Shown: positions 4,895 to 29,691 of the stretch, in pieces
How positions within the stretch are numbered: the stretch's first letter is position 1
Layout of the letters: every line of letters begins with the position of its first letter
Assembly: GCF_004102945.1 (NCBI RefSeq)
Contig: NZ_CP019384.1
Coordinates: forward strand, 1,620,001 to 1,652,000
Length of the DNA stretch: 32,000 nucleotides
DNA from: Candidatus Velamenicoccus archaeovorus
GTDB taxonomy: Bacteria > Omnitrophota > Gorgyraeia > Velamenicoccales > Velamenicoccaceae
Direction: 5' to 3'
Position numbers and translations under genes: made by a program
The notes under the pieces: model-generated
The model's input: the letters and a program-made list of their open reading frames with translations, nothing else
The model's database searches: none
Told to the model about the DNA's origin: nothing

Positions 4895-5054
4895 CTCCTT
4901 AATTCCGCCTCTGGCGGGATTAACTCCACGTGTATCTCGAGAATTTATGACTGCCCGTCCGAACTCTGTGAGGACTGGTCGCAGACATAAATTGTCGAGA
5001 TGCTTACACGGGGAGTAACGTTTATTTCCTTGATTCTTCCGCCTCTGGCGGAAT
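4895..5054 (-). repeat. Structured intergenic element, family 2, copy 1 (two short hairpins flanking a roughly 90-nt imperfect hairpin; ends in the SD of the downstream gene)
   Basis: About 90% identical to 25786..25946. Long arms 4924..4954 and 4981..5015. Flanking hairpins TTCCGCC-TCT-GGCGG. The minus-strand end reads GGCGGAATTAAGGAG followed by the ATG. Confidence 0.85.
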
Positions 5055-5168
5055 CATTCCTTTTACTTTGCTTTGTGCCATCAATGTCACAACCCGCCAC
5101 GGGCGCACGTCTTATGACATTGAGAAGCGGTTAAGCAGAAAACCTTTGTATTTTTAAAGATTTGAGCC

Positions 5169-5196
5169 AATATATCACAACAGGACTAAAAGTCAA
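5169..5196 (-). promoter_or_regulatory. Sigma-70-type promoter with extended -10 (TTGACT-N16-TGaTATATT)
   Basis: The minus strand reads TTGACT TTTAGTCCTGTTGTGA TATATT. It would give a roughly 270-nt leader containing the family-2 element ahead of ATG 4887. Confidence 0.45.
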
Positions 5197-5410
5197 CCCT
5201 TCGTTGTCCTTGCCCTAAAAAGCGGGGCTTGCCTCAGGGTTGACACTCAAGACGGCGGATACATTACTTTCGCCTTAAAAGGCGAGGATTGACCGCCGGC
5301 GAATGCGTCAAATATCTTTGCAAAAACACGGCATTCCGGCCCCCAGGGCCCCGGTGGATCGCGAAACAGAAAAATGCCTGCCTGGAAGCCTGCTACGAAA
5401 TCACCTGGAG

Positions 5411-5557
5411 CCCCACGGGCCTGCCCTAGGCAAAGCCAGGGCGAGCCCGTGGGGCGACGTCCTGCTCCGCCATGGTTTTGTCTGCAAGACAAAACCAATC
5501 CACGAGCTGGGCCTCGCCTGCCCAAGCGGGCAGGGAATTCTGGAAAACGGGATTAAT
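5411..5557 (-). repeat. GC-rich multi-hairpin intergenic repeat, family 1, copy A
   Basis: The core 5447..5557 aligns with 10962..11072: ccgtgggg.gacgtcc..g..ccgccatggttttgtctgcaagacaaa.ccaatccacg.gc....gcctcgcc.gc.caagcgggcagggaattc.gg.....gggattaat. Hairpins: GGTTTTGTC/GACAAAACC, CCTGCCC/GGGCAGG, CCCCACGGGC/GCCCGTGGGG. Confidence 0.85.
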
Positions 5558-5586
5558 TTGTTTAAGGAAACAGGCGACGATGGAAG
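5552..5586. repeat. 35-nt perfect direct repeat, copy 1 (duplicate of the 3' coding end of the 806-aa gene)
   Basis: attaatttgtttaaggaaacaggcgacgatggaag occurs at 5552..5586 and again at 5623..5657. Confidence 0.9.
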
Positions 5587-5604
5587 TCCTGACAAAATTA
5601 AGGA

Positions 5605-8025
5605 TCACGCTTCTTTTGCCGAATTAATTTGTTTAAGGAAACAGGCGACGATGGAAGGGTCAAACTGACGGCTGGATTCCTTGGCAAGGGCGCTTGCTGT
5701 TTCTTTGCAACTCAAGGGCTTGACACGGTAGGGGCGCGGAGAGATCATCGCCTCATAGGCCTCGGCAACGGCGATCATCCGCGAGACGATCGGGATCATC
5801 CCCCCTTTGAGGCCGCGCGGATACCCCGAACCGTCAAAATGCTCATGGTGATCTAGGACATCCTCTCTAAGGGCCGCCAGGAAAGCGACATCGCCGATGA
5901 GGTCTATGCTGAAAAAAGGATGCCGCCGCACCAGCGCTTTTTCCTGGTCGCTCAGCAAGGATTTGCGCAGAACATCCCTGGGGAGACTCAAAAAACCAAG
6001 GTTGCACAATAACGCTGCGCGCCTCGCACGAGACGCATCCTCTTGCGGCAACGCCATCTCCAGACACAGACCTTCCACATCCTTGACGATACGATCCGTA
6101 TAACCAGGCTCATAGCCGAGGATTTCATCGGTCTTGCGCATCAAAGGCCTGAAGGATTCCAGCAGGGCCTCTTCATTTCTCAAATTCACATACCGCAGTC
6201 GTTGTTTCATCTTCACGAAAAGGTTTTCCTCGGGGGCATGGACAGGATCCTGCGTCTTTGCTATCCCTGCTTCTTCTTTATGGAAAATCGTGATGCGATT
6301 GCGGCCGGCGGCCTTGCTTCGATACATCGCCTGGTCGGCGGCATTCAAAAGGGCCACGGGATCTAAAACATTCACCTCCGGATAAGAGGCGATCCCCATG
6401 CTGATGGTGATGGTCACACGGCGCTCCTTGTTGCCGAGAGGTTTCTGTTTCAGCGCCGCGGCGATCTTACGGGCCGTGGCGAGAGCCCCGAAGCTGTCCG
6501 TATCGGGACAGAAGACGACAAACTCTTCTCCCCCGGAACGCACCACGATGTCCGTCGCGCGTACGCTGATCCTCAGAAGATCTGCGAAGCCTTTAAGGAC
6601 CGTATCTCCGAACAAGTGACCGTAGGCGTCGTTGACAGCCTTAAAGAAATCCAGATCGATCATGATGACGGCGAACGACCGCCAATAACGGCGGGCGCGA
6701 TGAACCTCCTCGTGGAGCCTTTCTTGAAGATAGCGATAATTATACACACCCGTCTGCACGTCCTTGAGCGCATTTTCCACCAGCGAGGCATTGAGCGCCC
6801 GCAGCGTCAGGTTGGCATCCCGCAACTTGATGGATGCCGTCTTGGCCTCCGTGATATCCGAAATGAACACAAGGGTGTGAGGCGGCTGCGTACCGAAGAC
6901 AAGAGGAATGCTGGATGCCAGGGCATAAAGATAATGGCCGTCTTTCTTGACGAAAATAATCTCCTGGGCCCTGCGGATCAGCTTGACGGAAGGAAGATGT
7001 CTGTGTTCCTCGGGCAGAATAAAATCATAAAGGCTCCGATCCACCATCTCCGATTCAAGATACCCCATCAAATCCGAGAAGCTTCTGTTGACGAACTGGA
7101 TCGAATTGTCCGTGCGCAATTCCACGATGCCTTCCACCGCATGCTCCATGATGGTGTGTATCTTTTTGTAATAGTACTCGAGCATCTCCTCCGACTTTTT
7201 CCTCCGGGTGATGTCGCGGAATATCTCCACGCGGCCGCCATTAAGTTCGCCGTGGGTGATGGGATAACTCCAGTGCTCCATATAGTCGATGTCCGGACTG
7301 CCCGGCCTTTTCATCTGGTACTCGACATTCTCCACGGCGGTGTTGGCCTCGTAGGCCGAAAGGATACCCTGCAAAAAAAGGTCATGATCCAGGATCAAGT
7401 CTTTAAAGTTCTCCCGGAAAATCCTGCGTATGTCCTCGCCGACCGCCCCTCTCTTATCGAGGCCAAAATACGTGCCGACGCTTGAAGAGACCCAGTGCAC
7501 CCGGAAACTCCTATCGAGGATCATGATGATGTAATCCAGCGTATCGATACCGTCTTCAAGCATCGATTCGTATTTTTTCTCAAGCCTCTGGACTTCCAAG
7601 AGCTTGGTCCTATCCTTGAAAACGGCCTTGGCGCCGCAGTAACGCCCCTGATTATCGCAGAATGCTATAGAGTTCATCTCGCCGGTGACCTTGCCGCCCC
7701 ACTTGGTCTTCAGGACAAAGTCCTGCATCCGCAGGCGGCCCGACTTCAGGAACTCCTTTGCCCTCTCCGCGAACGCCGCCCGGCTCTCCGGAGCGATGAT
7801 ATCGTACATATGCATGTCCAAACATTCTTTCTTGGTATACCCGAGCGAATCCGCCAACTGTCTGTTGACGTAAATAAATTTCCCCTCGCGGTCGACGATA
7901 CCCATCAGATCGCTGGATTCGTCCAACAGCGTGCGATACTTTTCGTCGATCAGCTGGTAGAGAAGCCGCGAAACCAACGGCAGGTCTTCATCTCCGGGAT
8001 TAAGGATCTTTTCTAAGTAATCCAT
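5605..8025 (-). CDS. Multi-PAS sensor, diguanylate cyclase (GGDEF, GGEEF active-site motif with RxxD I-site) fused to a degenerate HD-GYP domain
   Basis: 806 aa. PAS-like repeats in the N-terminal 400 aa. RATDIVVRSGGEEF (GGEEF at 6520..6534). C-terminal HHEHFDGSGYPRGL. The expected LHDIGK is LCNLGF (C674 N675 at 6001..6006). SD AAAGGAGAG lies before the ATG. Confidence 0.9.
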   Translation of the reverse strand: MDYLEKILNPGDEDLPLVSRLLYQLIDEKYRTLLDESSDLMGIVDREGKFIYVNRQLADSLGYTKKECLDMHMYDIIAPESRAAFAERAKEFLKSGRLRMQDFVLKTKWGGKVTGEMNSIAFCDNQGRYCGAKAVFKDRTKLLEVQRLEKKYESMLEDGIDTLDYIIMILDRSFRVHWVSSSVGTYFGLDKRGAVGEDIRRIFRENFKDLILDHDLFLQGILSAYEANTAVENVEYQMKRPGSPDIDYMEHWSYPITHGELNGGRVEIFRDITRRKKSEEMLEYYYKKIHTIMEHAVEGIVELRTDNSIQFVNRSFSDLMGYLESEMVDRSLYDFILPEEHRHLPSVKLIRRAQEIIFVKKDGHYLYALASSIPLVFGTQPPHTLVFISDITEAKTASIKLRDANLTLRALNASLVENALKDVQTGVYNYRYLQERLHEEVHRARRYWRSFAVIMIDLDFFKAVNDAYGHLFGDTVLKGFADLLRISVRATDIVVRSGGEEFVVFCPDTDSFGALATARKIAAALKQKPLGNKERRVTITISMGIASYPEVNVLDPVALLNAADQAMYRSKAAGRNRITIFHKEEAGIAKTQDPVHAPEENLFVKMKQRLRYVNLRNEEALLESFRPLMRKTDEILGYEPGYTDRIVKDVEGLCLEMALPQEDASRARRAALLCNLGFLSLPRDVLRKSLLSDQEKALVRRHPFFSIDLIGDVAFLAALREDVLDHHEHFDGSGYPRGLKGGMIPIVSRMIAVAEAYEAMISPRPYRVKPLSCKETASALAKESSRQFDPSIVACFLKQINSAKEA
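5623..5657. repeat. 35-nt perfect direct repeat, copy 2 (inside the 806-aa gene; encodes ...SIVACFLKQIN)
   Basis: Identical to 5552..5586. It lies 18 nt upstream of the real stop codon (5605..5607). Confidence 0.9.
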
Positions 8026-8274: not shown

Positions 8275-8988
8275 TCAGGAGAGAAGAAAAAATCCGTTGC
8301 TCTTGAGGAGTTGGTGGTCGGAAAGAATCTCGCGGGTAGGGCCGTAGGCGACGATGCGGCCTCCGCTCAGCAAGATGACCTGCCGAGTCAGGACCCGGAT
8401 CATCTCCAAGTCGTGGGAAGCGATCAGCTTGGTCATTGAAACCCCCCTGAGGATCTCCATCAGCTGCTGCCTGTGGCCGGGGTCAAGATTGCTGGTGGGC
8501 TCATCGAGAACCAAAAGCCGGGGGGCCATCGCCAGCACCGTCGCCACCGAAACCCTCTTCTTCTCGCCAAAGCTCAGATGATGCGACGGCCGTTCAGCGC
8601 TCGCCTCCATATCCACGGCCCCGAGCGTCCGGTGCACGCGCCGGCCGATCTCGTCCTGCGGCAGGCCCATATTCAACGGACCAAAGGCAACATCATCAAA
8701 GACGGTCGGCATAAAAAGCTGCGTATCGGGATCTTGAAAGACAAGCCCTACATCCCGCCGCACGCGGGCAAGGGTCTCGTCACATATCTCGCGGGAAAAG
8801 ACCTTGATCTTTCCCTCGCCGCGCAGAATACCGTTAAGATGCAACAGCAAAGTCGTCTTGCCGGCGCCGTTAGGCCCAATCAGACCGACAGAATCGTCTT
8901 CGGAAATAGCAACCGACAGGTCTTTCAATACTTGCGTGCCGTCAGGATAGCTAAAATAAAGATGCTCTATTTCCACGGCATAAGACAT
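8275..8988 (-). CDS. cbiO: ECF-type (cobalt/nickel) transporter ATP-binding protein
   Basis: Walker [19 protein letters not shown] (ECF-ATPase signature), [16 protein letters not shown]. The start is taken at [10 protein letters not shown] (ATG 8988) with GGAGG 5 nt upstream. The track start at 9048 overlaps cbiQ. Confidence 0.88.
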
Positions 8989-9701
8989 AATGCCTCCAGG
9001 CTGCCCATGATCAAAATGGAGATTACAAGGAAGGCCCCATCCGCCCATGCGGCCGTGCGCGCAAACCCCGGATAGGCCAAAACACGGACGGTGCCGTCAT
9101 AGCCACGCGCACACATGGCCAGATACACCCTTTCTCCTTTTTCGTAGGACCTGACAAACAAATGGCCGAGGATACTTGAAAAAATCTTCGCCTGGCGGCC
9201 TGGCGAAAGACGGCCGCCCACTGTCCGCGACAACTGGGCCTGGCGCATCTTCATGAACTCATCGAGGATAAGATAGATATAGCGGTACAAGAACGACAAC
9301 ATCCGGATCACGATCGAAGGGCACCGCATGGCTTCCAACGCCTTGAGCAACCGCGGGAACGGCGTCGTCGAAACCATCAGAAAAACCGCCACCATGGCCT
9401 CCACCGCTTTGATGACGGTCACGGCAAGCCCGCCGGATGCCGCACGCATGGACCACCCCGTCAAGAGCACGAAGGGCAACAGGGTCAGGATGCGGCCGGC
9501 GATCGGCCTCAGCGGCAGGTGCGAAAAAATAAAAACAACCGCCAAAAGGACACCGTAGAAAACAAGCCCCCGCATGCCGGTGGAGGGCTGCAAAAGCACA
9601 AGCAAGATAAAAAGACCGAAAACAAAAAGTTTCACGCGGGGATCGCGCCGGCACAAAAAAGAATCCGTGTGGGAATATGCGTCAATGAAATTATGATGCA
9701 T
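8967..9701 (-). CDS. cbiQ: ECF transporter transmembrane (T) component
   Basis: 244 aa polytopic membrane protein with the C-terminal ...YLAMCARGYDG motif (Ala-Arg-Gly coupling motif of EcfT/CbiQ). It is adjacent to cbiO. Confidence 0.8.
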   Translation of the reverse strand: MHHNFIDAYSHTDSFLCRRDPRVKLFVFGLFILLVLLQPSTGMRGLVFYGVLLAVVFIFSHLPLRPIAGRILTLLPFVLLTGWSMRAASGGLAVTVIKAVEAMVAVFLMVSTTPFPRLLKALEAMRCPSIVIRMLSFLYRYIYLILDEFMKMRQAQLSRTVGGRLSPGRQAKIFSSILGHLFVRSYEKGERVYLAMCARGYDGTVRVLAYPGFARTAAWADGAFLVISILIMGSLEALCLMPWK

Positions 9702-9771
9702 GGACAGGCCCTTCCGGGATCAGGAAAACCGACGGCTCCTCACGCGCACCTTGTACGCCAGCGGCAGGATT

Positions 9772-10188
9772 CTAGAGGATTTTGCTGCCTGTCGTCGCCA
9801 TACTTAAAGACGTATGTTTGATACCCTTGAGCGCCTGGATCCGGTCATAAAGATCCTGGATACGCCTGGCGCGGCCGCGGACGACGATGATCTCCAAACA
9901 GTTATGATGGTCCAGATGGATATGCTGCGTGGAAACGATATGCTCCTGCGCACCGTGCTGGATCCCCAGAAGATTCTCCACCAGGTCCCGCCTGTGATGG
10001 TCATAAACGACCAGGAGCGCGCCGGCCACTCTTTCATTCGCCTGCCACTCCTGGGCCACAAAAACACCGCGGATCAAATCACGGATGGCCTCCGAACGGT
10101 TCTTGTATCCCTTGCGGCGCATGTAAGCGTCGAAGCGGCCCAAGAATTCCTCTTCCATCGATACGCCGAAACGCGACAATTTAGACAA
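9772..10188 (-). CDS. nikR: Nickel-responsive regulator NikR (RHH/CopG N-terminus plus ACT-like Ni-binding domain)
   Basis: LSRFGVSMEEEFLGRFDAYMRRKGYKNRSEAIRDLIR (RHH) and ...VVYDHHRRDLVENLLGIQHGAQEHIVSTQHIHLDHHNCLEIIVVRG (His-rich Ni site). The start is uncertain. I favour TTG 10188 (SD GGAAGGGGG upstream, 139 aa) over the track ATG 10263, which sits inside the promoter. Confidence 0.85.
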   Translation of the reverse strand: MSKLSRFGVSMEEEFLGRFDAYMRRKGYKNRSEAIRDLIRGVFVAQEWQANERVAGALLVVYDHHRRDLVENLLGIQHGAQEHIVSTQHIHLDHHNCLEIIVVRGRARRIQDLYDRIQALKGIKHTSLSMATTGSKIL

Positions 10189-10274
10189 AACTGCCCCCTT
10201 CCTGCCCAGCTGCCGGCCATCTAAAACCGGCCCAAAAGGACAAAAAATATCCTGGCGTGCCACTGATTATAAAA

Positions 10275-10302
10275 ATCATAACACGAAGAAGGTTTGTGTC
10301 AA
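10275..10302 (-). promoter_or_regulatory. Sigma-70-type promoter with extended -10 (TTGACA-N16-TGtTATGAT) upstream of nikR
   Basis: The minus strand reads TTGACA CAAACCTTCTTCGTGT TATGAT. A second TATAAT lies at 10266..10271. Confidence 0.45.
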
Positions 10303-10322
10303 AGGGATTTGGGAAAAGAATT

Positions 10323-10901
10323 TCAGGATAGCTTGAAGGACTCCAGGGTGTCCAGGAACAGGCTTTCCTGAGCAGCAAAATCAACGTCTGTATTCTTATA
10401 ACTCAGCACATAGATATCGTCGCCTTTTTCGAAATAATAGGTCTCTTCCTTGAGGAGGACATCTTTGGCGTTGACCTGGTAGATGGGCAGCCGCAGGACA
10501 TACGTCATGACACAGCGCAAGGCGTCGATCCCGAAAGGAAGTTTGACAGTGGAGCGGGACTCCAGCTTGAAGGACGACAGGCCATGGGCGGCTTGGACGG
10601 CGTGGTCCGCCAGGGCCTGGGCGCTCGCATAGACGCCCCCTTTGTCCTTTTTGGGATAGACCGTCAAGGTGATGGAAGGCCCGAAACCAAGGTCTTTGTT
10701 GCGTTCGCCGAAGACATGGACCTGGGTATAGGCTTCAGTCTTGCCTTTGGATTCCCGCAGGGTCCAGCCCTTGGGATAACGCAAGGTGCAGAAGGAAGAT
10801 TGGTAGGAGAAATCCTGATCCGCCATCGTGTCTCCTTGAAAAACGGCCGCCGCAACAACGGCGACGGTAAAGATCATGAAGCCAAAATGTTTTCGATCCA
10901 T
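10323..10901 (-). CDS. Signal-anchored/secreted small protein, partner copy 2 of the pilin-HExxH module
   Basis: 192 aa from ATG 10901 (MDRKHFGFMIFTVAVVAAAVFQ...). Residues SYQSSFCTLRYPKGW...YVLSYKN are identical to ORF 12288..12863. The track extension to 11189 reads through the family-1 repeat. Confidence 0.75.
   Translation of the reverse strand: MDRKHFGFMIFTVAVVAAAVFQGDTMADQDFSYQSSFCTLRYPKGWTLRESKGKTEAYTQVHVFGERNKDLGFGPSITLTVYPKKDKGGVYASAQALADHAVQAAHGLSSFKLESRSTVKLPFGIDALRCVMTYVLRLPIYQVNAKDVLLKEETYYFEKGDDIYVLSYKNTDVDFAAQESLFLDTLESFKLS
10391..10808. repeat. 418-bp direct repeat, copy 2 (reads as identical to 12356..12773)
   Basis: Base-by-base reading of the boundaries gives an offset of 1965 nt. 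Translations are identical in two different frames in the ORF track (the minus-strand proteins and plus-strand MGGLDGVVRQGLGARIDAPF...), which supports nucleotide identity. Confidence 0.9.
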
Positions 10902-11072
10902 AGACAGAGGGCCGAGAAGGCCAGCCCTTCGGGCCCGCCCCTGGCTTCCAGTCAGGGGCGGCCGTGGGGTGACGTCCCTGTCCCGCCATGGTTTTGTCTG
11001 CAAGACAAAGCCAATCCACGGGCATAGCCTCGCCCGCTCAAGCGGGCAGGGAATTCCGGCGCAGGGATTAAT
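10902..11072 (-). repeat. GC-rich multi-hairpin intergenic repeat, family 1, copy B
   Basis: It fills the whole gap between the stop of the 407-aa gene (TAA 11068..11070, inside GGGATTAAT) and ATG 10901. Hairpins: CCGCCCCTG/CAGGGGCGG, GGCTTTGTC/GACAAAACC, GCCCGC/GCGGGC. Confidence 0.85.
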
Positions 11073-12291
11073 ATTCCGGGAGATCCGGATAAGCCGTCCG
11101 GATGATCTCTTTTGCGCTCGCTTCATCCAAAGCAACCACAGAGGCCCACCCATCCTGATTGGCATCTGTATCGCCGTCCTTGATCTCATTCCAGACGGCG
11201 GCGCCGTTCAAAAAGGCATTGTACTCCTGATCGATGCTGTCCCCCAGATTCGTGCCGCGTTCCGGCTGGCCCTGGCTTGTATCGTTGGTCCACCAGGCAT
11301 GGGTCCCTTCGTGGGCCAGGATGGAAGTCTGAACGCCCTGGGACAATCCGAACTGCGAGAGATCCACGATGATCGTATTGAAATAAGAAGAGTACCATCC
11401 GACGGCATCGGAGACGCCTGTTCCAAAACCGATCTTGACATCATAAAGATCTATGATATCGGCGAGCGCGGAACCATTGCTGGATTCGTCGAGTTTCGTC
11501 AGGGCTTCGGCCGCCGCGACGGCATATACCGAATCCGCCGATGGTGTGCCAGAAAAAACGCCGGAAGAAACGACCGCCCCATCGTCGTAAACGGCATCTA
11601 CACGATAATAATAGGTGGAGCCGTTTGTCGTCCAGACGTCCGTGAACCAGGTCGCTGTCCACCCTTCCACGAAAAACTCATACGGCCCGCCGGGTGCCGT
11701 GGCGCGATAGATGTTATAACTGACAGGGGTCCCTGTGGCCGCCTCCCAACTCAGGCTCAAAAAGCTGTCATTGCCGATCGCTAGAGGCGTTTGTGGAAAA
11801 CTGCGGCCCACGCCTTCTGCGCCGCCGCCGCTTCCAGGAAAGCTTCCGCCCGCCCCAGCATCACTGCCGCCCCCTGATCCGCCTGTCGCCCCTATGCCTC
11901 CCCCTGTCCCTGCACCGCCGCCGCCCCCGCCTCCTCCTGTCCCGCCGCCGCTGCTACTGCCGCTGCCAAAACCGCCGGGACCGCTGAATCCCCCCGAAGA
12001 ACCTCCACTATTGCCGGCAAAACCGCCGCCGGATGCAGCGCCGGTCTCATCGTCAAACATATTCAAGGGCTGACCGACATCTTCGGCAATCAGACCGCCG
12101 GAATCGTTCATTTTCGTTCCGGCGTCGGCATACATTTTTGTCACGGAGGGCTTAAAGATGTGGAAGGCTGAAAAAACGACCGTTATCGCAAGGACCGTAA
12201 ACATGAGGACGAACTCAAGGACCCCTTGTCCCCGGCGCCCCCTCAAAAACCTCTCGACCTCTCTCGCCTTGCTGGCAGGTGAATTCATCAC
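11068..12291 (-). CDS. Modular pilin-like protein: class-III/Tad-like signal (RRG-QGVLEF), Gly-rich linker, FN3-like domain, C-terminal HExxH domain
   Basis: 407 aa. G21/Q22...E26 (+5 Glu) followed by a hydrophobic helix. Gly-rich region about aa 85-160. YNIYRATAPGGPYEF...GSTYYYRVDAVY (FN3 pattern). ILAHEGTHAWW (HEGTH at 11299..11313) with a downstream DQEYNAF. Confidence 0.7.
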   Translation of the reverse strand: MMNSPASKAREVERFLRGRRGQGVLEFVLMFTVLAITVVFSAFHIFKPSVTKMYADAGTKMNDSGGLIAEDVGQPLNMFDDETGAASGGGFAGNSGGSSGGFSGPGGFGSGSSSGGGTGGGGGGGGAGTGGGIGATGGSGGGSDAGAGGSFPGSGGGAEGVGRSFPQTPLAIGNDSFLSLSWEAATGTPVSYNIYRATAPGGPYEFFVEGWTATWFTDVWTTNGSTYYYRVDAVYDDGAVVSSGVFSGTPSADSVYAVAAAEALTKLDESSNGSALADIIDLYDVKIGFGTGVSDAVGWYSSYFNTIIVDLSQFGLSQGVQTSILAHEGTHAWWTNDTSQGQPERGTNLGDSIDQEYNAFLNGAAVWNEIKDGDTDANQDGWASVVALDEASAKEIIRTAYPDLPEY

Positions 12292-12863
12292 TTGATCCTT
12301 ATGGATTTTTTGATCATGCGGAATGAGGCAAGGTTGGGAGTAAAATCCTTCGCGATATTCTTATAACTCAGCACATAGATATCGTCGCCTTTTTCGAAAT
12401 AATAGGTCTCTTCCTTGAGGAGGACATCTTTGGCGTTGACCTGGTAGATGGGCAGCCGCAGGACATACGTCATGACACAGCGCAAGGCGTCGATCCCGAA
12501 AGGAAGTTTGACAGTGGAGCGGGACTCCAGCTTGAAGGACGACAGGCCATGGGCGGCTTGGACGGCGTGGTCCGCCAGGGCCTGGGCGCTCGCATAGACG
12601 CCCCCTTTGTCCTTTTTGGGATAGACCGTCAAGGTGATGGAAGGCCCGAAACCAAGGTCTTTGTTGCGTTCGCCGAAGACATGGACCTGGGTATAGGCTT
12701 CAGTCTTGCCTTTGGATTCCCGCAGGGTCCAGCCCTTGGGATAACGCAAGGTGCAGAAGGAAGATTGGTAGGACACGCCTTCCATCCGCGGCAAAAACAA
12801 AATCACAAGAAGAACTCCGCAAACTAAAAAAAATAACACAACGGCTATACTCTTCAGCTTCAT
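12288..12863 (-). CDS. Signal-anchored small protein, partner copy 1 of the pilin-HExxH module
   Basis: 191 aa. N-terminal TM/signal MKLKSIAVVLFFLVCGVLLVILFL. SD GGAGGAGG lies before the ATG. Its stop overlaps the start of the 407-aa gene. The YPKGW...-type beta-rich body is reminiscent of PsbP/DUF1795-like folds (unverified). Confidence 0.75.
   Translation of the reverse strand: MKLKSIAVVLFFLVCGVLLVILFLPRMEGVSYQSSFCTLRYPKGWTLRESKGKTEAYTQVHVFGERNKDLGFGPSITLTVYPKKDKGGVYASAQALADHAVQAAHGLSSFKLESRSTVKLPFGIDALRCVMTYVLRLPIYQVNAKDVLLKEETYYFEKGDDIYVLSYKNIAKDFTPNLASFRMIKKSIRIK
12356..12773. repeat. 418-bp direct repeat, copy 1 (reads as identical to 10391..10808)
   Basis: See 10391..10808. Confidence 0.9.
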
Positions 12864-12889
12864 TCAAGACCTCCTCCTGTGCCCCAGGA

Positions 12890-14320
12890 TCAATATTCAG
12901 GCAAATCCGGATAATAAAGACGAATGACCTCTTTCGCGTCGGCCTCTCCCTGGGCGATCACGCTTGCCCAGCTGTCCTGGTTGTAATCTGTCTGACCGCC
13001 CTTGATATCGCCCCAGACGGTAGCGCCGTTCAAAAAGGCATTGTACTCCTGATCGATGCTGTCCCCCAGATTCTCGCCGCGTTCCGGCTGGCCTTGGTTT
13101 ATATCGTTGGTCCACCAGGCATGGGTCCCTTCGTGGGCCAGGATGGCCGCCTGCACTTCCGCCGTACTCGAAAATTCATCCAGATTGATCCTGATGGTGT
13201 TAAAAAGAGGTTCGTACCACGCCGCAACCGAATTGTCGCAATTGCCGAACCCCACCTTCACGTCATACAATAAAATGATCTCTGCAATCGTCGCCCCCGT
13301 AGGGCTGGTCGCCAATTCCAACAAGGCCTCTGCGGCCTGCAAGGCGTATTGCGACGTTGCCGAAGGCGTTGCGGAAAAGATTTCGGAGGAATAGGTGGCT
13401 TGTTCGCCGTAATGGGCATCGATGCGGTAATAATACGTCGTATCATTGGTAACGGTCAAATCCGTATAATAATCGGTTGTGCCATACCAATTTTCATAAA
13501 GCAGCTCGAACTCGCCCGCCGCCGACGTCGACCTGTAGATATCATAAGAATCCGGATAAATACCGATCCCGGCCCAACCGATAGTGACAAAACCGTCATT
13601 CCCTGTTGCAACGGGCGGATAAGTGAACCCCATGGCAGCGACGGTGCCGCCGCCTGTGCTGCCCCCGGAGGAACCGTCTCCCGAAGACCCTGTGGATGAA
13701 CTGCCCCCCGAAGAACCGCTGCCCGAAGAGCCGCTGCTGCCGGAGGAGCCGCCCAAGGAACCGCCTGAAGACCCGCCGGACGAACCGCCTCCTGAAGAAC
13801 CGCCGCCTCCGCCATAAGAAGAACTTCCGCCGGAGGAAGAACCTGAGGCGTAGGTATAGCCGACATGACCATCGGCATACATGGCAATGACAATCGGTTT
13901 CTCCTGCGCCTTTTCTTCGTCGACACGCTCGGCGACAGCCGCAAAATCATCGGCCGTGACATTGACGATCTTATACGTGAAATCCTTATCTTCAATCTGC
14001 ACTTCCGTGAGACGCTCGTTGATCTCCTGGGTATTCGTCGCGTTGACGAACGCCCCCTTCGCGGCCGCTTCCGACAACTGCGCCTTACGGACAGCGGCGA
14101 GATTATTGAGGGCTTCGGCATCTTGGGCTTTAGAAGTAACATGGAAATAAGAAACGGCGGCAAGAGAAGCCAGGACGGAAGTGACAACGACAATAATGAC
14201 AATCTCAAGAAGAGTGAACCCCGCCCTGAGAGAAAACCTTCTTCTATCAAGTCCCGCCGCAAAATGCAGCCGTGCGGCGCAATCTTTGAGGCGTCTGCTC
14301 ATTCTGCAGAGATTGTTCAT
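12890..14320 (-). CDS. Modular type IV pilin-like protein: prepilin N-methylation motif (G-FTLLE), pilin-like head, Gly/Ser linker, FN3-like domain, C-terminal HExxH domain
   Basis: 476 aa. LRAG/FTLLEIVIIVVVTSVLASLA (motif at 14204..14221). Gly/Ser run about aa 158-225. YDIYRSTSAAGEFEL...DTTYYYRIDAHY. AILAHEGTHAWW (HEGTH at 13121..13135). The C-terminal 160 aa are highly similar to the 407-aa paralogue, and both end YPDLPEY. Confidence 0.75.
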   Translation of the reverse strand: MNNLCRMSRRLKDCAARLHFAAGLDRRRFSLRAGFTLLEIVIIVVVTSVLASLAAVSYFHVTSKAQDAEALNNLAAVRKAQLSEAAAKGAFVNATNTQEINERLTEVQIEDKDFTYKIVNVTADDFAAVAERVDEEKAQEKPIVIAMYADGHVGYTYASGSSSGGSSSYGGGGGSSGGGSSGGSSGGSLGGSSGSSGSSGSGSSGGSSSTGSSGDGSSGGSTGGGTVAAMGFTYPPVATGNDGFVTIGWAGIGIYPDSYDIYRSTSAAGEFELLYENWYGTTDYYTDLTVTNDTTYYYRIDAHYGEQATYSSEIFSATPSATSQYALQAAEALLELATSPTGATIAEIILLYDVKVGFGNCDNSVAAWYEPLFNTIRINLDEFSSTAEVQAAILAHEGTHAWWTNDINQGQPERGENLGDSIDQEYNAFLNGATVWGDIKGGQTDYNQDSWASVIAQGEADAKEVIRLYYPDLPEY

Positions 14321-21092: not shown

Positions 21093-22306
21093 ATCTTGAA
21101 GAAAGAAACGTGCGTCTTTTTTTTCAACCGCGCATGCGCAGGCGCCGCAAAAAAACAATCCGCGCCTGCGACGTGATAGATATCCGCGCTCCCATGGAAC
21201 GTCAGAGGCATAAGGCCGGTTCCCCTGTTTTGACGGCGCAGGCGTGCCGGCAGAAACGACAGGCGCTCGCTCTCATTATACACATCTTTCAGCAAAACAC
21301 CCTGCAAGAAGGAAGACTTGCCCTCACCCCCCTGAAGGTATTCTATCACCGGTTTGACAAACAACATGAATGTCACGAGGCTCGCTATGGGGTTGCCGGG
21401 GAGGCCAAAAACCAGTTGACGGCCCCGGCGGCCGAACCACAAAGGCTTGCCCGGCCGAATCAGGACTTTATGGAAAAGACGGGTCACGCCGTTCTTGGCC
21501 AACATCCGCGGCACATAGTCCTTTGCGCCTGCCGAGACGCCTCCAGTCACGATGAGAATGTCATGCTTCAGCCCCTGACGGACCTTCTTGTCCAAAAGGG
21601 CCACACGATCAGGGGCGTGTCCCAGATGTTCACACAAGGCGCCCATGCGCGACAAACTGGAGAAGATCATGGGTGTTGTCGCATCATAGACCTGGCCGCG
21701 GCGCGCGCACCGTCCGGCTGGAACGACCTCATCACCCGTCGTCAACAAAGCGACACGCGCAGGCGCAAAGACCTCGACACAGCCGTATCCCAGGGACCCC
21801 AGAAGGGCGATGCGCGACGGATTCAACAACGTTGCGCGCCGCAAGAGAAGCGTCCCTTTCCTGTAATCGCGGCCGCGGGGATAAACGTCCTTCCCCCGAC
21901 ACACGCGGCGCACCACCCGCAGGCGGCCGTCCGACAAAACCTGCGCATCTTCTTTTTTGATGACGGCATCTGCGCCCGGAGGCATCACGGCGCCCGTGGC
22001 GATGGCAGCGCTTTCGCCGGCGCCGATCCTGCGGCCAAAGACCCGACCCGCAGGAACAAACCCGACGACCCGCAGGACGACCGGCGCATCCGCCGTGTCC
22101 CGGCTGCGCACGGCAAAGCCGTCCATGACAGCCCTGTCAAAAGCAGGAGCGTCCGTCGGAGCCATGACATCGCGGCTCAAAAATCTTCCTTCGGCTTTAA
22201 CAAGTTCAAGACAGGAGGTTTTACGTCGAGGCAGATGGCGGAAAACAATCTTGCGCGCGGTCGTGAATGAAATCATGATAGGACGCATCCCGGCGAGGCG
22301 GATCAC
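21089..22306 (-). CDS. moeA: Molybdopterin molybdenumtransferase
   Basis: 405 aa. FDRAVMDGFAVRS, ILIVTGGVSAGAKDYV and IRPGKPLWFG are typical MoeA blocks. The start is uncertain: GTG 22306 overlaps the upstream stop, or ATG 22276. Confidence 0.9.
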   Translation of the reverse strand: MIRLAGMRPIMISFTTARKIVFRHLPRRKTSCLELVKAEGRFLSRDVMAPTDAPAFDRAVMDGFAVRSRDTADAPVVLRVVGFVPAGRVFGRRIGAGESAAIATGAVMPPGADAVIKKEDAQVLSDGRLRVVRRVCRGKDVYPRGRDYRKGTLLLRRATLLNPSRIALLGSLGYGCVEVFAPARVALLTTGDEVVPAGRCARRGQVYDATTPMIFSSLSRMGALCEHLGHAPDRVALLDKKVRQGLKHDILIVTGGVSAGAKDYVPRMLAKNGVTRLFHKVLIRPGKPLWFGRRGRQLVFGLPGNPIASLVTFMLFVKPVIEYLQGGEGKSSFLQGVLLKDVYNESERLSFLPARLRRQNRGTGLMPLTFHGSADIYHVAGADCFFAAPAHARLKKKTHVSFFKI

Positions 22307-22800
22307 TCCCGGCTCGTTTCTTGTTCCTCAAGCCAGGAGAGGACGAGCTCTTTGATGTTCTTGACGATGTCCTCCTTGGCCTTTTCCAGTTCCGGCGTCA
22401 TCTCAAGGCCGTAGGAAGCGTCCTTTACCTGGATGCCGGCCACATGGATATCCGTCGCCAGGCCGAGGACATTGTAGATTTCCAGGAGATCGGCCAGTGA
22501 TATTTCATGCGAAGAAATCTTGCTTTGGCTGGCATAGACCTGTGCTTCTTCCAGACGAAAGATCTTAATGGTGGCAGGGGCAAATCCGGCATCCATGGCA
22601 TCGATCAACAAGACCTTGCGAAATTCGCCCAAGAAATTGACCAGACCGAAGCTTGCGATCCCGAAGTTCAGAAAAGAAATGCCGCTGCTTTTGAGCTCAT
22701 TCTCGAGCTCGGCAAGGAGATGGATCCCGATGCCGTCATCCCGGCGCAGGGTATTGCCAAGGCCGATGACGGCGATATTACGAGACGAATCTAACATCAA
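22303..22800 (-). CDS. [NiFe] hydrogenase maturation endopeptidase (HyaD/HycI family)
   Basis: 165 aa. IAVIGLGNTLRRDDGIGIHL and LIDAMD motifs. It lies directly after the large-subunit gene. Confidence 0.88.
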   Translation of the reverse strand: MMLDSSRNIAVIGLGNTLRRDDGIGIHLLAELENELKSSGISFLNFGIASFGLVNFLGEFRKVLLIDAMDAGFAPATIKIFRLEEAQVYASQSKISSHEISLADLLEIYNVLGLATDIHVAGIQVKDASYGLEMTPELEKAKEDIVKNIKELVLSWLEEQETSRE

Positions 22801-24166
22801 GCAAGTGCGTCGAACAGGAAATGCAGGGGTCGTAGGCCCTGGCCAGCATTTCCAGCGTCAGGCGCATCTCCTCTTCGCCTTGAATGCCGACGATTTCCGG
22901 AACGATTTTTCTCATGTCGGCCTCAAGATTATTGATGTTCTGGTTTGTGGGGATAATGCAGTTGGCGGCCGCCACGACGCCGTGGTCGTCGACCGTATAA
23001 TCGTGGAAAAGAATGCCGCGCGGCACTTCGACCGCCCCCACACCGCGACCGGCGCGCGTCTTGATCGGCCATTGGTCTTTTTTCGGATACATCGTCACCA
23101 AGACCTTTTCCTCGTCGATGCCGTTCTTGATCAATCTCTCGAGGATGGAGATGGAATCCTCCAGACAATAACCCCATTCAACGACTTGGGCCACAGTATT
23201 CATGAAGGTATTGGCGCACGGACGCTTCAAACCCAAGTAAGAAGCGACCTCTTTTGATTTCTTGTCCAGTTTGTCGCCGTTAAGATTGAAGCGCGCCAAG
23301 GCGCCCACCATATAGGGCGCCTTGTTGACCGTCACGAATTTCGCAGAAGAATAATCGCGTACCTCTTCCTTGATCACCGACAGGTAATCCTGAGGGTCGA
23401 CGAGCTTTTCGCCGTTGACATTGATCTTTCCGTCATAAAATGCGTATTCTTTCTCATGCGACAGCGCCACATACTGCCCTTTGCGCTCGAAGGACGGCAG
23501 CGCCAGCTTCTTGAAGAGCTCGACCGTTTCGGCGTAATCGGCGCGCGCCTCCACCATCATCTCCCGCAGCTTCTGTAAATGGGCCTTCTCGGGGATCTTC
23601 GTCAAGCCGCCGATGGCAAAAGAGATTGGATGGGTGTGACGTCCGGCCAGGATCTCTCCGGCCCAATCGGAAAGCTTTTTCATGCGGAAGGCCCGCTCAA
23701 TGACAGGCCTGTGGGTCTTCACCAGGGGCATGATGCTCTTGACGCCCAGGAGGTCCGGCGCAACAAGGACATAGGCGTGCAGGACGTGACTGTCCATCTG
23801 TTCGGTATGCAGGAGGAGCTTACGCAAAAGGAGCGTATCCTCGTGGGGCACGATACCGAGCGCTTTTTCCGAGGCCTTGATCGACGTCAGGCTGTGGCCG
23901 CAGGCGCAGATGCCGCAGATGCGACTTGTCAAATGCTGGGCCTCGTAGATCAACCGGCCGCGCAACATCGTCTCAAAGAATCTGGCCGACTCGATGACCT
24001 TGAATTTGCACTCCTTAAGCTCACCGGAGCGGACATCCACCGTGATATCGCCATGGCCTTCGACGCGCGTCAGATAGTGAACGTCGATCTTGACGTCCTT
24101 TGCCCCCCCGCTATGGGAAGCGCGGCGGGCCGTCCTTTCTGGATCAGGATTTGAACTCTTTGTCAT
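22778..24166 (-). CDS. [NiFe] hydrogenase large (alpha) subunit, group 3b-like
   Basis: 462 aa. N-terminal RICGICACGHS (RxCGxCxxxH) and C-terminal DPCISCSTH followed by an 8-aa tail (LLDVRFVS) for endopeptidase cleavage. Confidence 0.92.
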   Translation of the reverse strand: MTKSSNPDPERTARRASHSGGAKDVKIDVHYLTRVEGHGDITVDVRSGELKECKFKVIESARFFETMLRGRLIYEAQHLTSRICGICACGHSLTSIKASEKALGIVPHEDTLLLRKLLLHTEQMDSHVLHAYVLVAPDLLGVKSIMPLVKTHRPVIERAFRMKKLSDWAGEILAGRHTHPISFAIGGLTKIPEKAHLQKLREMMVEARADYAETVELFKKLALPSFERKGQYVALSHEKEYAFYDGKINVNGEKLVDPQDYLSVIKEEVRDYSSAKFVTVNKAPYMVGALARFNLNGDKLDKKSKEVASYLGLKRPCANTFMNTVAQVVEWGYCLEDSISILERLIKNGIDEEKVLVTMYPKKDQWPIKTRAGRGVGAVEVPRGILFHDYTVDDHGVVAAANCIIPTNQNINNLEADMRKIVPEIVGIQGEEEMRLTLEMLARAYDPCISCSTHLLDVRFVS

Positions 24167-24914
24167 ATTTGGCCCTCTCCTTCTGGGCGTTGCAGTAGAG
24201 CGTAAATTTATCCAGGATCCCTTCGACCGTCAGGCCGTATTTCTCCAGGATGTCTTTCTGGGCGTTGGCGGCCGGATTATCGATCAAACCGCGACAGCCG
24301 ACGCATGGAACACCGTTATTCGGCAACCACGAGTTGCAGCCCGCGCGCGTGATCGGCCCCAGACAAAACTGGCCTTTGTCATACAGGCAGACATTCTCGT
24401 TCTGCCTGCATTCAACACACACGGGATATGTCGGAACCTTGTAGGGTTTGCCCATGAGCACGCATTGCATCACCTTAACGAACTCCGGGCCGTGAATAGG
24501 GCAACCGTGGACATAATAATCCACTTTAACGACGGCATCGATCGGCTTGGCGGCAACGGCGTCCTTGACGGGATCGACGTCTCCGTAAACGATTTTTTTC
24601 TGCTCTTCGAGGGATTTAAGGTTCTTAAGATTATTGACCCCGCCTGTTGCCGCGCAGGCGCCGAGCGCCACGATGACCTTGGCCTTGGCGGCGATCGCCT
24701 TGAGCCTCTCTTCGTCATGCTTGGAGGCGATGCTCCCTTCGACGACGAGGACATCATACTCCTGCCCTTCCTCGCTCATGATTTCGCGGAAATTCACGAT
24801 ATCAACGGCCTTCGTCAACTCCAGAAGGTCGGCGCCGAGATTAGCCACCTGCAGCTGGCATCCTTCGCAATCCGTAAACTCAAAAAAAGCGACTTTGGGC
24901 TTCGCTTTAGACAT
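24144..24914 (-). CDS. [NiFe] hydrogenase small (delta) subunit, group 3-type
   Basis: VAFFEFTDCEGCQ...GACAATGG...HGCP... plus a C-terminal Cys cluster. The start is taken at MSKAKPKV (ATG 24914) with GAGGGGGA upstream. Confidence 0.88.
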   Translation of the reverse strand: MSKAKPKVAFFEFTDCEGCQLQVANLGADLLELTKAVDIVNFREIMSEEGQEYDVLVVEGSIASKHDEERLKAIAAKAKVIVALGACAATGGVNNLKNLKSLEEQKKIVYGDVDPVKDAVAAKPIDAVVKVDYYVHGCPIHGPEFVKVMQCVLMGKPYKVPTYPVCVECRQNENVCLYDKGQFCLGPITRAGCNSWLPNNGVPCVGCRGLIDNPAANAQKDILEKYGLTVEGILDKFTLYCNAQKERAKYDKEFKS

Positions 24915-25779
24915 GGCATTCCCCCTCGTGGCACTCCCCTTCCATCTGCCGCAGCTCATCATAGGTAAAGACCGGGCCGCTCTGGCAGACATAGACGCCG
25001 CGGATCTGGCAGTGGCCGCATTTACCCAGCCCGCACTTCATCTTGCGCTCCAGCGAAACGATGATCTGATGTCCCGGGATCTCTTTCTTCAACAATTCGA
25101 CGATGACGAATTTATACATGATCGGCGGCCCGACGACAACGGCATAGGTCTTTTTCGGCTCGATAGAGGCGCCGGGGATGAGACTCGTGATCAAGCCGAC
25201 GTTGCCTTTCCAGTCCGGGTCGGCGCGGTCCACCGTGCAGTTGAATTTGATGTCCGCCCGTTTCTGCCAGGCTTCGACTTCCTCGCCGAAAAGCATGTCC
25301 TTGGGCGTCTTGCAGCCCAAAAGGATCTGCACGTCGCCGAAATCCTTGCGCTGGTCGAGGATGTAATGGATAAGGGAACGCAACGGGACGATCCCCAGGC
25401 CTCCCGCTACGATCAGGATATCGTTGCCCCGCATCGCATCGAGAGGAAACCCTTTGCCGAACGGCCCGCGGATCCCCAGGACGCTGCCTGTCTCCAGCTT
25501 ATGCATGGCGGTCGTGAGCCCCCCGACGCGGCGGACCGTCAAATCGAAATACCCTTTTTCCGTCGGCGATGAGCAGACGGAAATCGGAGCCTCCCCCACG
25601 CCAAAAAGGGAAACCTGCACAAACTGCCCTGGAACATGTTCCAGGTCTTTTTTACCGTCAAGCTCGATACGAAACAGCTTCTCAAACTCCGTGTATTTGT
25701 TGGTCTTGACGATCTTCGCCTTGACCGGCTTGTACGGAGAGGTCTTGAGAAGCTCCTGATAAGACAATTCTGTTTTCAT
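24907..25779 (-). CDS. Hydrogenase gamma subunit (FAD/NAD(P)-binding oxidoreductase with C-terminal 2Fe-2S; AsrB-like)
   Basis: 290 aa. GQFVQVSLFGVGEAPIS, ILIVAGGLGIVPL and C-terminal CGLGKCGHCQ. Confidence 0.88.
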   Translation of the reverse strand: MKTELSYQELLKTSPYKPVKAKIVKTNKYTEFEKLFRIELDGKKDLEHVPGQFVQVSLFGVGEAPISVCSSPTEKGYFDLTVRRVGGLTTAMHKLETGSVLGIRGPFGKGFPLDAMRGNDILIVAGGLGIVPLRSLIHYILDQRKDFGDVQILLGCKTPKDMLFGEEVEAWQKRADIKFNCTVDRADPDWKGNVGLITSLIPGASIEPKKTYAVVVGPPIMYKFVIVELLKKEIPGHQIIVSLERKMKCGLGKCGHCQIRGVYVCQSGPVFTYDELRQMEGECHEGECHV

Positions 25780-25785
25780 ACCCTA

Positions 25786-25946
25786 CTCCTTAATTCCGCC
25801 TCTGGCAGAATTAACTCCACGTGTATCTTGAGAATTTATGGCTGCCCGCCTGAGCTCTGTGAAGGCTGGTCGCAGACATAAATTGTCAAGATGCTTACAC
25901 GAGGAGTAACGTTACCTTCCTTTAACCTTTCCGCCTCTGGCAGAAT
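25786..25946 (-). repeat. Structured intergenic element, family 2, copy 2 (occupies the beta-gamma intercistronic gap)
   Basis: It aligns end to end with 4895..5054. It starts 13 nt after the beta-subunit stop and ends in AAGGAG 6 nt before the gamma-subunit ATG. Confidence 0.85.
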
Positions 25947-25959
25947 GAGAAGTAAATTG

Positions 25960-26991: not shown

Positions 26992-27024
26992 ACATTTACC
27001 CCCACAGGACATTGTCAGTCAACT

Positions 27025-27279
27025 TCAATTCTTGTCTTTGAACGTGACGCTCACGAGCCTGGCCTCCGGCCCCGTCATGACCTTCTTGATCTCGAGACGC
27101 ACGTCCTGCCAAGGCGTCCCCCCGACCGCTTCCTGGAAATGCTCCCGGAAATGCCCTTCGTCCCAGCCACCGAACGCCGACATCTCGACGGTAATCGCTT
27201 CAATCCGGCGGCCGGCGTGGTCTTCTTGGACCCGGCGAACCGCCTCAAGCATATTCTTGATCAAACCCGTCTCATGCAT
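27025..27279 (-). CDS. hypA: HypA-like nickel metallochaperone lacking the zinc-finger insert
   Basis: 84 aa. The N-terminal MHE nickel motif and the HypA core pattern (MHETGLIKNMLEAVRRV...IEAITVEMSAFGG...GT...RLEI) are present, but there are no CxxC...CxxC pairs at all. Confidence 0.7.
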   Translation of the reverse strand: MHETGLIKNMLEAVRRVQEDHAGRRIEAITVEMSAFGGWDEGHFREHFQEAVGGTPWQDVRLEIKKVMTGPEARLVSVTFKDKN

Positions 27280-27282
27280 GGC

Positions 27283-29596: not shown

Positions 29597-29691
29597 ATCA
29601 CGGACTCGCTTTCTGGTACATGTTAAAAATCACCGCTAACCAAACGTGCGACTATTTGGAAATTTGAATTTGGTTATTGGTCATTGCATGG

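Follow-up and report, generated by a model that had tools for sequence, protein, structure and literature searches.

This study deals with a group of four genes in a 32,000-nucleotide (nt) stretch of the genome of Candidatus Velamenicoccus archaeovorus, an ultra-small bacterium; the whole stretch is referred to here as the window, and all positions are counted from its first letter. On the minus strand of the window, the genes follow each other in the order of a 476-amino-acid (aa), a 191-aa, a 407-aa and a 192-aa protein, just as the initial annotation, a reading of the letters without database searches, had placed them. The first open reading frame (ORF), here called L1 (12890..14320), encodes a pilin-type modular protein that carries a zincin-like domain, and it is followed by S1 (12288..12863), whose product consists of an N-terminal signal anchor and a predicted PsbP/Mog1-fold domain. 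The next ORF, L2 (11068..12291), is a paralog of L1 and is succeeded by S2 (10323..10901), which encodes a signal peptide and a predicted PsbP-fold domain. A protein of about 190 aa with an N-terminal transmembrane or signal segment thus stands after each large gene, in agreement with the first description of the locus, and the reported overlap of the S1 stop with the start of the following gene was found as well, comprising 4 nt with the GTG start of L2 (AAGTGATG); the junction between L1 and S1 amounts to 26 nt. In the NCBI records, S1 corresponds to BU251_07725 (P0015, 100% identical) and L2 to BU251_07720 (P0001), the latter annotated from the second Met with 406 aa. The protein collection holds no entry that is 100% identical to L1, and a near-identical 476-aa counterpart is found in a metagenome-assembled genome (MAG) of the same species (GCA_041890195.1, locus L005). 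The ORF of S2 can be extended upstream to 11189, an alternative start that would give a 122-nt overlap with L2; a GC-rich spacer of 166 nt (10902-11067), which contains a GCCCGC-TTGA-GCGGGC hairpin, separates the stop of L2 from the probable start of S2.

The C-terminal part of both large proteins is formed by a small HExxH domain, located at 12893..13345 in L1 (minus strand, 151 aa) and at 11071..11520 in L2 (minus strand), and both proteins terminate in the common tail YPDLPEY that had been noticed at the outset. The HEGTH motif of L1, with H396, E397 and H400 in the translation, is encoded at 13121..13135 on the minus strand, and that of L2 at 11299..11313. Glu425 of L1, within SIDQEYN (13046..13048, minus strand), lies 25 residues past the second His, in the helix after the HExxH helix, and is proposed as the third zinc ligand. 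The AlphaFold2 (AF2) model of the domain, with a predicted local distance difference test score (pLDDT) of 90.8 and a predicted template modelling score (pTM) of 0.87, displays in order a helix, a second helix, three strands, the HExxH helix (62-80), a helix at 97-114 beginning with IDQE, and two more helices. The HExxH...E arrangement that the initial annotation had suspected is therefore seen in the model, with HEGTH on helix 62-80 and E425 at the start of helix 97-114. We observed that H396, H400 and E425 are the only invariant columns in 130 diverse representatives of the family, and that E397 is kept in more than 90% of them. As these two His and the Glu never vary across several phyla, and the catalytic Glu hardly does, we argue that catalysis has probably been retained. 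The comparison of the model with the PDB by Foldseek pointed, weakly (E >= 0.03), to a zincin rather than to a non-metalloenzyme fold, as almost all of the top 35 matches are zincins, including projannalysin, selecase, proabylysin, ArdC, Spartan and IrrE/PprI, as well as ImmA-like regulators, MATCAP, deuterolysin and anthrax lethal factor.

An exhaustive profile search disclosed 469 representative clusters of relatives at E <= 1e-3, of which 156 reached E <= 1e-10, and a word-indexed search returned only 14 relatives. The domain is almost always placed at the C-terminus of these proteins, which usually end in ...LPEY. In Pfam, DUF6782 (PF20573) matches 26 of the 130 representatives at E < 1e-3 (best E = 8.4e-9), the alignment covering model positions of approximately 32-102 out of 241, through the HExxH motif; SprT-like matches three of the 130, and Tox-MPTase4 gives weak matches at 7e-4 and 0.0029. 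A zincin-profile sequence search of the PDB returned FN3 matches only. The literature search for DUF6782 yielded no mention, and no characterised family member was found. From the model and the family comparison, we assign the C-terminal domain as a small gluzincin-like domain, distantly and below threshold related to DUF6782, with predicted peptidase activity.

The small proteins were approached in the same manner. In the AF2 model of S1 (pLDDT 92), residues 2-22 form a helix that leads into a domain rich in beta-strands, and the best-supported Foldseek neighbour of the model named here is CyanoP (2xb3, E = 4e-7, template modelling (TM) score 0.53/0.63), together with plant PsbP, Mog1, LpqN and DcrB, all of which were matched with a Foldseek probability of 1.0. 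Matches were also obtained with EagT6 and SciW (E = 2e-5 to 3e-4) and with Tsi3, an immunity protein of the type VI secretion system (T6SS). Among partner homologs, PsbP_2 is matched in 23 of 37 (E <= 0.1, best 1.5e-7) and PsbP in 19 of 37, and one homolog bears the name DUF1795 at NCBI. The partner is accordingly modelled as a PsbP/Mog1-fold protein.

With regard to the N-termini of the large proteins, the initial annotation had ascribed to both a prepilin-like sequence with Gly at -1, Glu at +5 and a hydrophobic helix. These features are present in L1 and in L2, but the carriers that they introduce are different, and that of L2 lacks a pilin head. The leader peptide of L1 (14219..14320, minus strand) comprises 34 aa from the first Met, or 28 from Met7, and ends in RAG with Gly at -1; the class III signal reads ...SLRAG↓FTLLEIVIIVVVTSVLASLAAV, with F+1 and E+5 (FTLLE) and then a hydrophobic helix, and in orthologs the motif is Gly, Ala or Ser followed by F[TS]L[IL]E. 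The pilin module proper (13850..14218, minus strand) is about 123 aa long; it begins with F+1 and E+5 in the hydrophobic alpha1-N helix, which a small predicted head domain is taken to follow. L1 alone gave sub-threshold matches to the NCBIfam models PilA (7e-6) and GspG (1.3e-5), in the N-terminal parts of the models only. A profile of the module from 14 orthologs matched solved type IV pilins, namely geopilin (6.5e-9), the PAK pilin PilA of P. aeruginosa (1.3e-8) and Neisseria PilE (8.7e-8), as well as GspG (9e-4); most of these alignments cover alpha1 alone, and those with PilE (positions 8-116) and T. thermophilus PilA (8-104) proceed into the head. Among the family representatives, N_methyl is matched in 25 of 130 and T2SSG in 7 of 130 at E < 1e-3, and the pilin motif was recorded in at least 50 of 160 family members. 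The N-terminus of L1 thus appears to be a genuine type IVa-like pilin module. The leader has a length typical of type IVb pilins, yet the mature FTLLE N-terminus and the profile matches are type IVa-like.

The N-terminus of L2 (12157..12291, minus strand) is a segment of about 45 aa with RGRRG↓QGVLEFVLMF and a hydrophobic helix, which resembles Flp or archaeal-type class III signals and carries no pilin head; approximately 34 further residues stand between this segment and the linker. No Pfam match of L2 to Flp_Fap or TadE was obtained. Relatives of L2 exhibit the Flp-type sequences G↓LSTSEYALIIV and NG↓FLTSEYAVMF, with weak matches to Flp_Fap (0.0065) and TadF (0.13), and its ortholog in locus L003 reads ERGVLEFVLIF. 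The two carrier classes recur together elsewhere, as GFT... and ERGVLEF in L003/L006, and as GFTLIE and NG↓FLTSEY in L008. On the question of class III or Sec signals, the profile of L1-type modules agrees with type IV pilins (6.5e-9 to 1e-7), and L2 scores 21.2 bits with Class_IIIsignal, just below the cutoff, so that class III signals are indicated for both. Behind the carriers, both large proteins possess the Gly/Ser-rich linker and the FN3-like domain that were first read from the letters. The low-complexity linker of L1 (13637..13849, minus strand) has about 71 aa and the Gly-rich linker of L2 (11812..12054, minus strand) about 81 aa. The FN3 domain is located at 13346..13636 in L1 (minus strand, by profile match) and at 11521..11811 in L2 (minus strand, by similarity to L1 and profile match); the family profile of this region matched solved FN3 domains in the PDB, such as 3mpc (4e-12), titin (4.7e-11) and that of PelI (4e-7), and those of neogenin and fibronectin as well.

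For the distribution of the gene pair, we assembled 50 loci by a one-genome-per-species scan and searched their ORFs with hidden Markov models (HMMs). The loci belong to Omnitrophota, Ratteibacteria, Chloroflexota/Anaerolineae and one Actinomycetota MAG, and some loci of the Omnitrophota type are labelled Planctomycetia. They contain 59 HExxH genes and 55 partner ORFs found by HMM, and a partner is located directly downstream of the HExxH gene in 55 of the 59 cases (54 by placement and that of L039 by inspection), with a gap of usually -3 to +30 nt. No partner was detected at L041, L047, L052 and L055, L052 and L055 being the most divergent. In five loci obtained from exact-protein look-ups, the small gene comes after the large one in each, and loci with two modules (the window, L008 and L026) harbor one partner per zincin gene. 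The co-conservation of the large and small genes, which had been put forward as a test of the pair, is consequently seen in Omnitrophota, Ratteibacteria and Chloroflexota. The identity matrices of zincin and partner correlate with r = 0.80, and paralogous modules track the same orthologs across genomes; the large and the small gene thus appear to be inherited as a unit. As the genes are linked, this correlation is no proof of binding. The contigs labelled 'uncultured Planctomycetia/Planctomycetales' (L008, L011, L012, L014, L033, L046) carry modules that are 53-67% identical to those of Velamenicoccus, and the labels may be wrong, since the flanks of L008 and L012, the loci checked, resemble Omnitrophota loci.

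We also noticed that the two proteins of a pair are matched in compartment. At loci of the Omnitrophota type, a class III signal on the large protein is accompanied by a signal anchor or a lipobox (...FGCS) on the small one, whereas in Anaerolineae loci the large protein begins with a coiled-coil N-domain or with none, and the small one begins directly at the PsbP-like domain. A crude signal classifier recorded signals on both proteins in 19 loci, on neither in 20, and discordant results in 9; on inspection, six of the discordant loci turned out to be missed short lipoprotein signals and three to be extended or truncated ORFs of the large protein. This matching amounts essentially to two independent observations at the level of lineages. 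Since the zincin domain is the only element common to all the large proteins, it is likely to be the binding target of the partner. Several Anaerolineae proteins (L020, L022, L024, L026-L029; P0006, P0007, P0012 and others) share a helical N-domain of about 180 aa with the pattern VRSIQALxxLKGALxRFxGEAQ...W... and two nearly invariant Cys. Its comparison with the PDB gave a marginal match (E = 0.05) to HP0062, a WXG100-like protein of H. pylori, and the Pfam models LXG and WXG100 gave no match, only coiled-coil noise. From its sequence, this N-domain may be a domain for secretion or oligomerisation.

As for the origin of the locus, the initial annotation had spoken of a tandemly duplicated module, which holds for a part of it. 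L1 and L2 are 57% identical across the C-terminal 245 aa (BLASTP E = 1e-95), and the overall identity of S1 and S2 is 88%, rising to 100% in the core. The N-terminal carriers, a pilin module of about 123 aa in L1 and a segment of about 45 aa in L2, are unrelated, and for this reason the two are not plain tandem duplicates; a simple tandem duplication of L1 and L2 was rejected, as the carrier modules are not homologous. The duplicated part is instead the effector half together with the partner, on carriers that differ between L1 and L2. The identical core of the small genes is an exact repeat of 418 nt, with one copy in S1 (12356..12773) and one in S2 (10391..10808), 100% identical to each other; on its flanks, which encode different signal peptides and C-terminal tails, the identity falls abruptly to approximately 50%. 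An exact tract with abrupt drops of identity on both sides argues for a recent gene conversion of the small genes, and it makes the locus a neat case of genes evolving in concert within a bacterial operon. A patch with 90-97% nt identity also exists between L1 and L2 (13028..13147 against about 11206..11325), extending from HEGTH to IDQEY with flanks of 50-60% identity; another conversion event or extreme constraint at the nucleotide level may account for it.

The MAG JBAZMA01 displays a comparable picture. One of its contigs ends in an L1-type gene (L006) and another opens with an L2-type module (L003), and the contig ends are 100% identical to its own S2 core (104/104 and 127/127 nt), the assembly breaking there. 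The core of its small genes is only about 60% identical to that of the window. Because JBAZMA01 repeats the pattern of the window with a diverged core, the tandem arrangement is probably older than the split of the lineages, and the cores of the small genes appear to have evolved in concert. The locus L005 (6544-8576) shows a single module, in which the small gene combines the N-terminus of S1 with the tail of S2; either a recombination between S1 and S2 deleted L2, or the short-read assembly collapsed the 418-nt repeat. In L008, the two modules (4972-7001 and 9151-10887) stand about 2 kb apart, one of the GFTLIE type and one of the Flp type, and their partners are 28% identical and not homogenised.

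Putting these features together, we give roughly even chances to the interpretation that the large proteins are modular subunits of type 4 filaments displaying a gluzincin protease, and that the PsbP-fold protein is their cognate partner in the same compartment, serving as an inhibitor, an immunity-like protein or a chaperone. According to this interpretation, the large protein would be inserted into the inner membrane and cleaved by a prepilin peptidase, with L1 using a type IVa-pilin-like module (G↓FTLLE) as its carrier and L2 a short class III segment of the Flp/Tad or archaeal type (G↓QGVLEF). It would then either be kept as a membrane-anchored periplasmic protease or enter type IVa and Tad filaments as a minor component, which would probably sit at the tip, and the flexible linker would give the protease reach to the surface of the prey or substrate. 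The partner would bind the zincin domain where it is first folded and hold it inactive or competent for assembly, in keeping with one of the three roles named above. That both proteins are directed to the same compartment provides a testable protease-regulator hypothesis, and irrespective of the pilin, the zincin and PsbP-fold genes constitute a two-gene module that is conserved in many uncultured bacteria.

Type 4 filaments are usually seen as devices for adhesion, motility or DNA uptake. A catalytically active protease borne by a pilin, if true, would extend the idea of modular pilins from binding to enzymatic attack. The host, V. archaeovorus LiM, has been reported as a predator of archaea that encodes and expresses both type IVa pili and a complete Tad system (PMC10066038). 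Since it is reported to attach to and kill cells, and also to express both types of pili, the module is a candidate for a contact-dependent lytic tool. A bolder version, which we consider distinctly unlikely, is that of a weapon delivered by filaments, in which a tip protease on type IVa and Tad pili would digest the proteinaceous envelope of the prey on contact, a periplasmic PsbP-fold immunity protein or inhibitor would silence it until assembly, and the Anaerolineae would deploy the same effector via a different, possibly WXG-like, route. If that were so, it would represent an unrecognised mode of trafficking, with a pilin as the toxin carrier for a toxin-immunity-like pair.

Several results weigh against the display of a protease on filaments. 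The Foldseek matches with zincins have probabilities of up to 0.97 and TM scores of 0.33-0.46, and none attains E <= 1e-3. The gathering threshold of DUF6782 (27 bits) is attained by neither L2 (14.4 bits, E = 0.023) nor the domain of L1 (12.4 bits), and with PsbP_2 (PF18933; threshold of 27 bits), S2 scores 13.2 bits (E = 0.09) and S1 has no match. With respect to the carriers, L1 stays under the 21.2-bit cutoff of N_methyl (16.9 bits), and L2 under the 23.7-bit cutoff of Class_IIIsignal (E = 2.8e-4). The leader of L1, at 28-34 aa against mostly 6-20 aa in orthologs, is longer than is typical of type IVa pilins, and no nearer in-frame ATG, GTG or TTG start exists for L1. Prepilin-type N-termini occur in many bacteria of the Planctomycetes-Verrucomicrobia-Chlamydiae group on proteins that are not known to enter filaments. 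By Pfam annotation, the 32-kb window contains no pilus-assembly genes, as the initial annotation had remarked, and no pilus family is present among the 25 most frequent Pfam families of 133 flanking genes at 25 Omnitrophota-type loci; because pilus genes are absent near the module, it is not tied to a particular filament system. Furthermore, the cores of the small proteins are identical though the domains of L1 and L2 are only 57-64% identical, which is unlike tightly co-specialised toxin-immunity pairs.

Alternatively, the large proteins may be part of a periplasmic protease complex that is anchored in the membrane and never displayed on a filament. The class III N-terminus would then be only an inner-membrane anchor or export signal, the enzyme would have a housekeeping or regulatory task, such as the quality control or processing of envelope proteins, and the partner would be its substrate adaptor or regulator. 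The module indeed resides amid housekeeping genes in conserved synteny (RlmN, M48, RluA-like, radical SAM; NikR, CbiQ/O), with no pilus genes found nearby at the 25 loci, and one and the same core of the small protein serves two different large proteins; moreover, since the pair is also purely cytoplasmic in Anaerolineae, its core function would be independent of a filament. We regard this as possible but rather doubtful, because L1 has an apparently complete and conserved pilin module that matches major type IV pilins past the signal (PilE, positions 8-116), a flexible linker of 70-80 aa combined with an FN3 spacer is usual in proteins displayed at the surface and would be unneeded close to the membrane, and two filament-type signals have been recruited repeatedly. 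The variable N-terminal trafficking part and the constant C-terminal catalytic domain, with the small gene immediately and tightly downstream (55 of 59 HExxH genes), would likewise suit an antagonistic effector-immunity pair following the logic of polymorphic toxins, in which the zincin attacks the envelopes of prey or competitors after export by the route of the lineage, of the pilin type in Omnitrophota and perhaps through a WXG/LXG-like N-domain in Anaerolineae, and the PsbP-fold partner gives immunity at the site where the folded toxin first emerges. The weak Tox-MPTase4 matches (7e-4, 0.0029), the presence of the T6SS immunity protein Tsi3 within the PsbP fold, the predatory habit reported for the host (PMC10066038) and the weak resemblance of the Anaerolineae N-domain to the WXG-like HP0062 (E = 0.05) go in this direction, and so does the metagenomic locus L002 (3236-8004), where the module directly succeeds a protein of 1428 aa, faintly matched by RHS-repeat and Peptidase_C39 models, and a 140-aa ORF, a hint of a toxin-like neighbourhood. 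A pair of this kind is nevertheless unlikely in our estimation, as the C-terminal domain is not polymorphic, alternative or orphan toxin and immunity cassettes were not seen in the loci, identical cores of the small proteins accompany two large proteins differing by about 40%, and the locus is chromosomal and syntenic with neither a plasmid or phage match nor a meaningful PADLOC match; in addition, the LXG and WXG100 models miss the Anaerolineae N-domain, and the pilin is not among the listed trafficking modes of polymorphic toxins (PMC3482391).

The structural matches of the partner to EagT6 and SciW (E = 2e-5 to 3e-4) and the name DUF1795 of one homolog invite the thought that the small protein chaperones the pilin's hydrophobic N-terminal helix, as EagT6 and SciW do with the transmembrane helices of T6SS effectors. 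We rejected this and hold it to be extremely improbable, since the partner is equally kept beside Anaerolineae zincins that have no hydrophobic N-terminus, the Omnitrophota partner has an export signal of its own and is exported or membrane-anchored whereas Eag chaperones are cytoplasmic, and T6SS, PAAR and VgrG genes were not found in the window. Another option is that the HExxH domain is not a peptidase but a metal-dependent hydrolase of another class of substrates, or a non-catalytic binding module in which the motif has been kept. The family has no characterised member and DUF6782 is absent from the literature searched, the structural similarity to known peptidases is weak, and ArdC and IrrE-like regulators, whose roles are specialised, are among the closest folds; set against the invariant His, His and Glu ligands with a near-invariant catalytic Glu in representatives of several phyla, and against fold neighbours whose known activities are all those of peptidases, we judge it very unlikely.

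In relation to the systems already described, the pilin-borne gluzincin with its partner has relatives in several directions. Modular type IV pilins are known, such as Streptococcus sanguinis PilB (pilin and vWA) and PilC (pilin and lectin), and an InterPro survey has listed 264 architectures, including FN3 and the predicted peptidases S74 and M26 (PMC8179133). The large proteins share with them a class III signal with a pilin module, a linker and a C-terminal functional module, and display on a filament is presumed for both. They are distinguished by a DUF6782-like gluzincin module, which is not listed in that survey (PMC8179133), by the unusually long Gly/Ser linker of 70-80 aa followed by FN3, by a dedicated PsbP-fold partner gene, and by the L2 paralog on a carrier of the Flp/class III type with no pilin head. 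The initial annotation had called a pilin-tethered zincin with a dedicated partner unfamiliar, and no description of the module was found in the literature searched, including recent work on V. archaeovorus and Omnitrophota and the BU251 locus tags; however, pilin-peptidase modules (S74, M26) have been catalogued (PMC8179133), and the pair exists in Anaerolineae with no pilin. New are the specific zincin family, its PsbP-fold partner and the occurrence of both carrier types within a single locus, and so is the broad spread of the pair, whether a pilin is attached or not.

The best structural matches of the domain are minigluzincins, namely proabylysin (4jiu), projannalysin (4jix) and selecase (4qhf), with Foldseek probabilities of 0.96-0.97; these are small soluble domains of approximately 105-150 aa, of the HExxH-plus-Glu kind and with a short beta-sheet and few helices, features in which the domain of the large proteins resembles them. 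The similarity is weak (E of about 0.03, TM 0.33-0.46), with no detectable sequence relationship, and the minigluzincins are stand-alone archaeal proteins, whereas the domain studied here is fused to a pilin and has a separate partner. Minigluzincins are inhibited by their own C-terminal tails. The best match to a sequence family is DUF6782, a putative metallopeptidase family, with the proteins of the window below threshold and the model partially covered. The small proteins have the same fold as the Eag chaperones of the T6SS (EagT6, SciW; DUF1795) and Tsi3, and resemble them in being encoded by a small gene beside that of an exported enzyme or toxin, to which binding is presumed. They differ from Eag proteins, which are cytoplasmic and bind the transmembrane helices of effectors, by their own signal anchor or lipobox, and from Tsi3, which neutralises a muramidase, by their position downstream of a zincin with no T6SS. 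PsbP/MOG1-like proteins beside secreted toxins have been noted for the T6SS (PMC3482391). The polymorphic toxins with zincin tips (Tox-MPTase1-5; PMC3482391) are likewise built of a trafficking region that varies at the N-terminus and a small HExxH domain at the C-terminus, with a small gene alongside. In contrast to them, RHS or filamentous repeats are absent from the large proteins here, whose C-terminal domain does not vary, the Tox-MPTase4 matches are marginal, and the pilin-type carrier is not among the trafficking modes that were described (PMC3482391).

According to Pfam, the modules are preceded in the window by genes for a NiFe hydrogenase with Hyp maturation, molybdenum cofactor synthesis, RlmN, an M48 peptidase, an RluA-like pseudouridine synthase and a radical S-adenosylmethionine protein, and they are followed by NikR, CbiQ/O, a PAS-GGDEF-HD protein, peptidoglycan-binding proteins, phosphoenolpyruvate carboxykinase, SAICAR synthase and an extracytoplasmic function sigma factor. 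The synteny of the module is retained in relatives. A mobile element or a defence system was considered and set aside: a tblastn search of the module against plasmids and phages gave no match, and the PADLOC defence models yielded one weak match at chance level, that of Cas3d to the low-complexity part of L1 (E = 0.0018). In L003, no NikR gene is present at the corresponding position. In the window, the module stands between the NikR-CbiQ-CbiO unit (8275-10263) and, further upstream, the NiFe hydrogenase with HypD/E/F and HycI (22303-30864), proximity being the only link between them.

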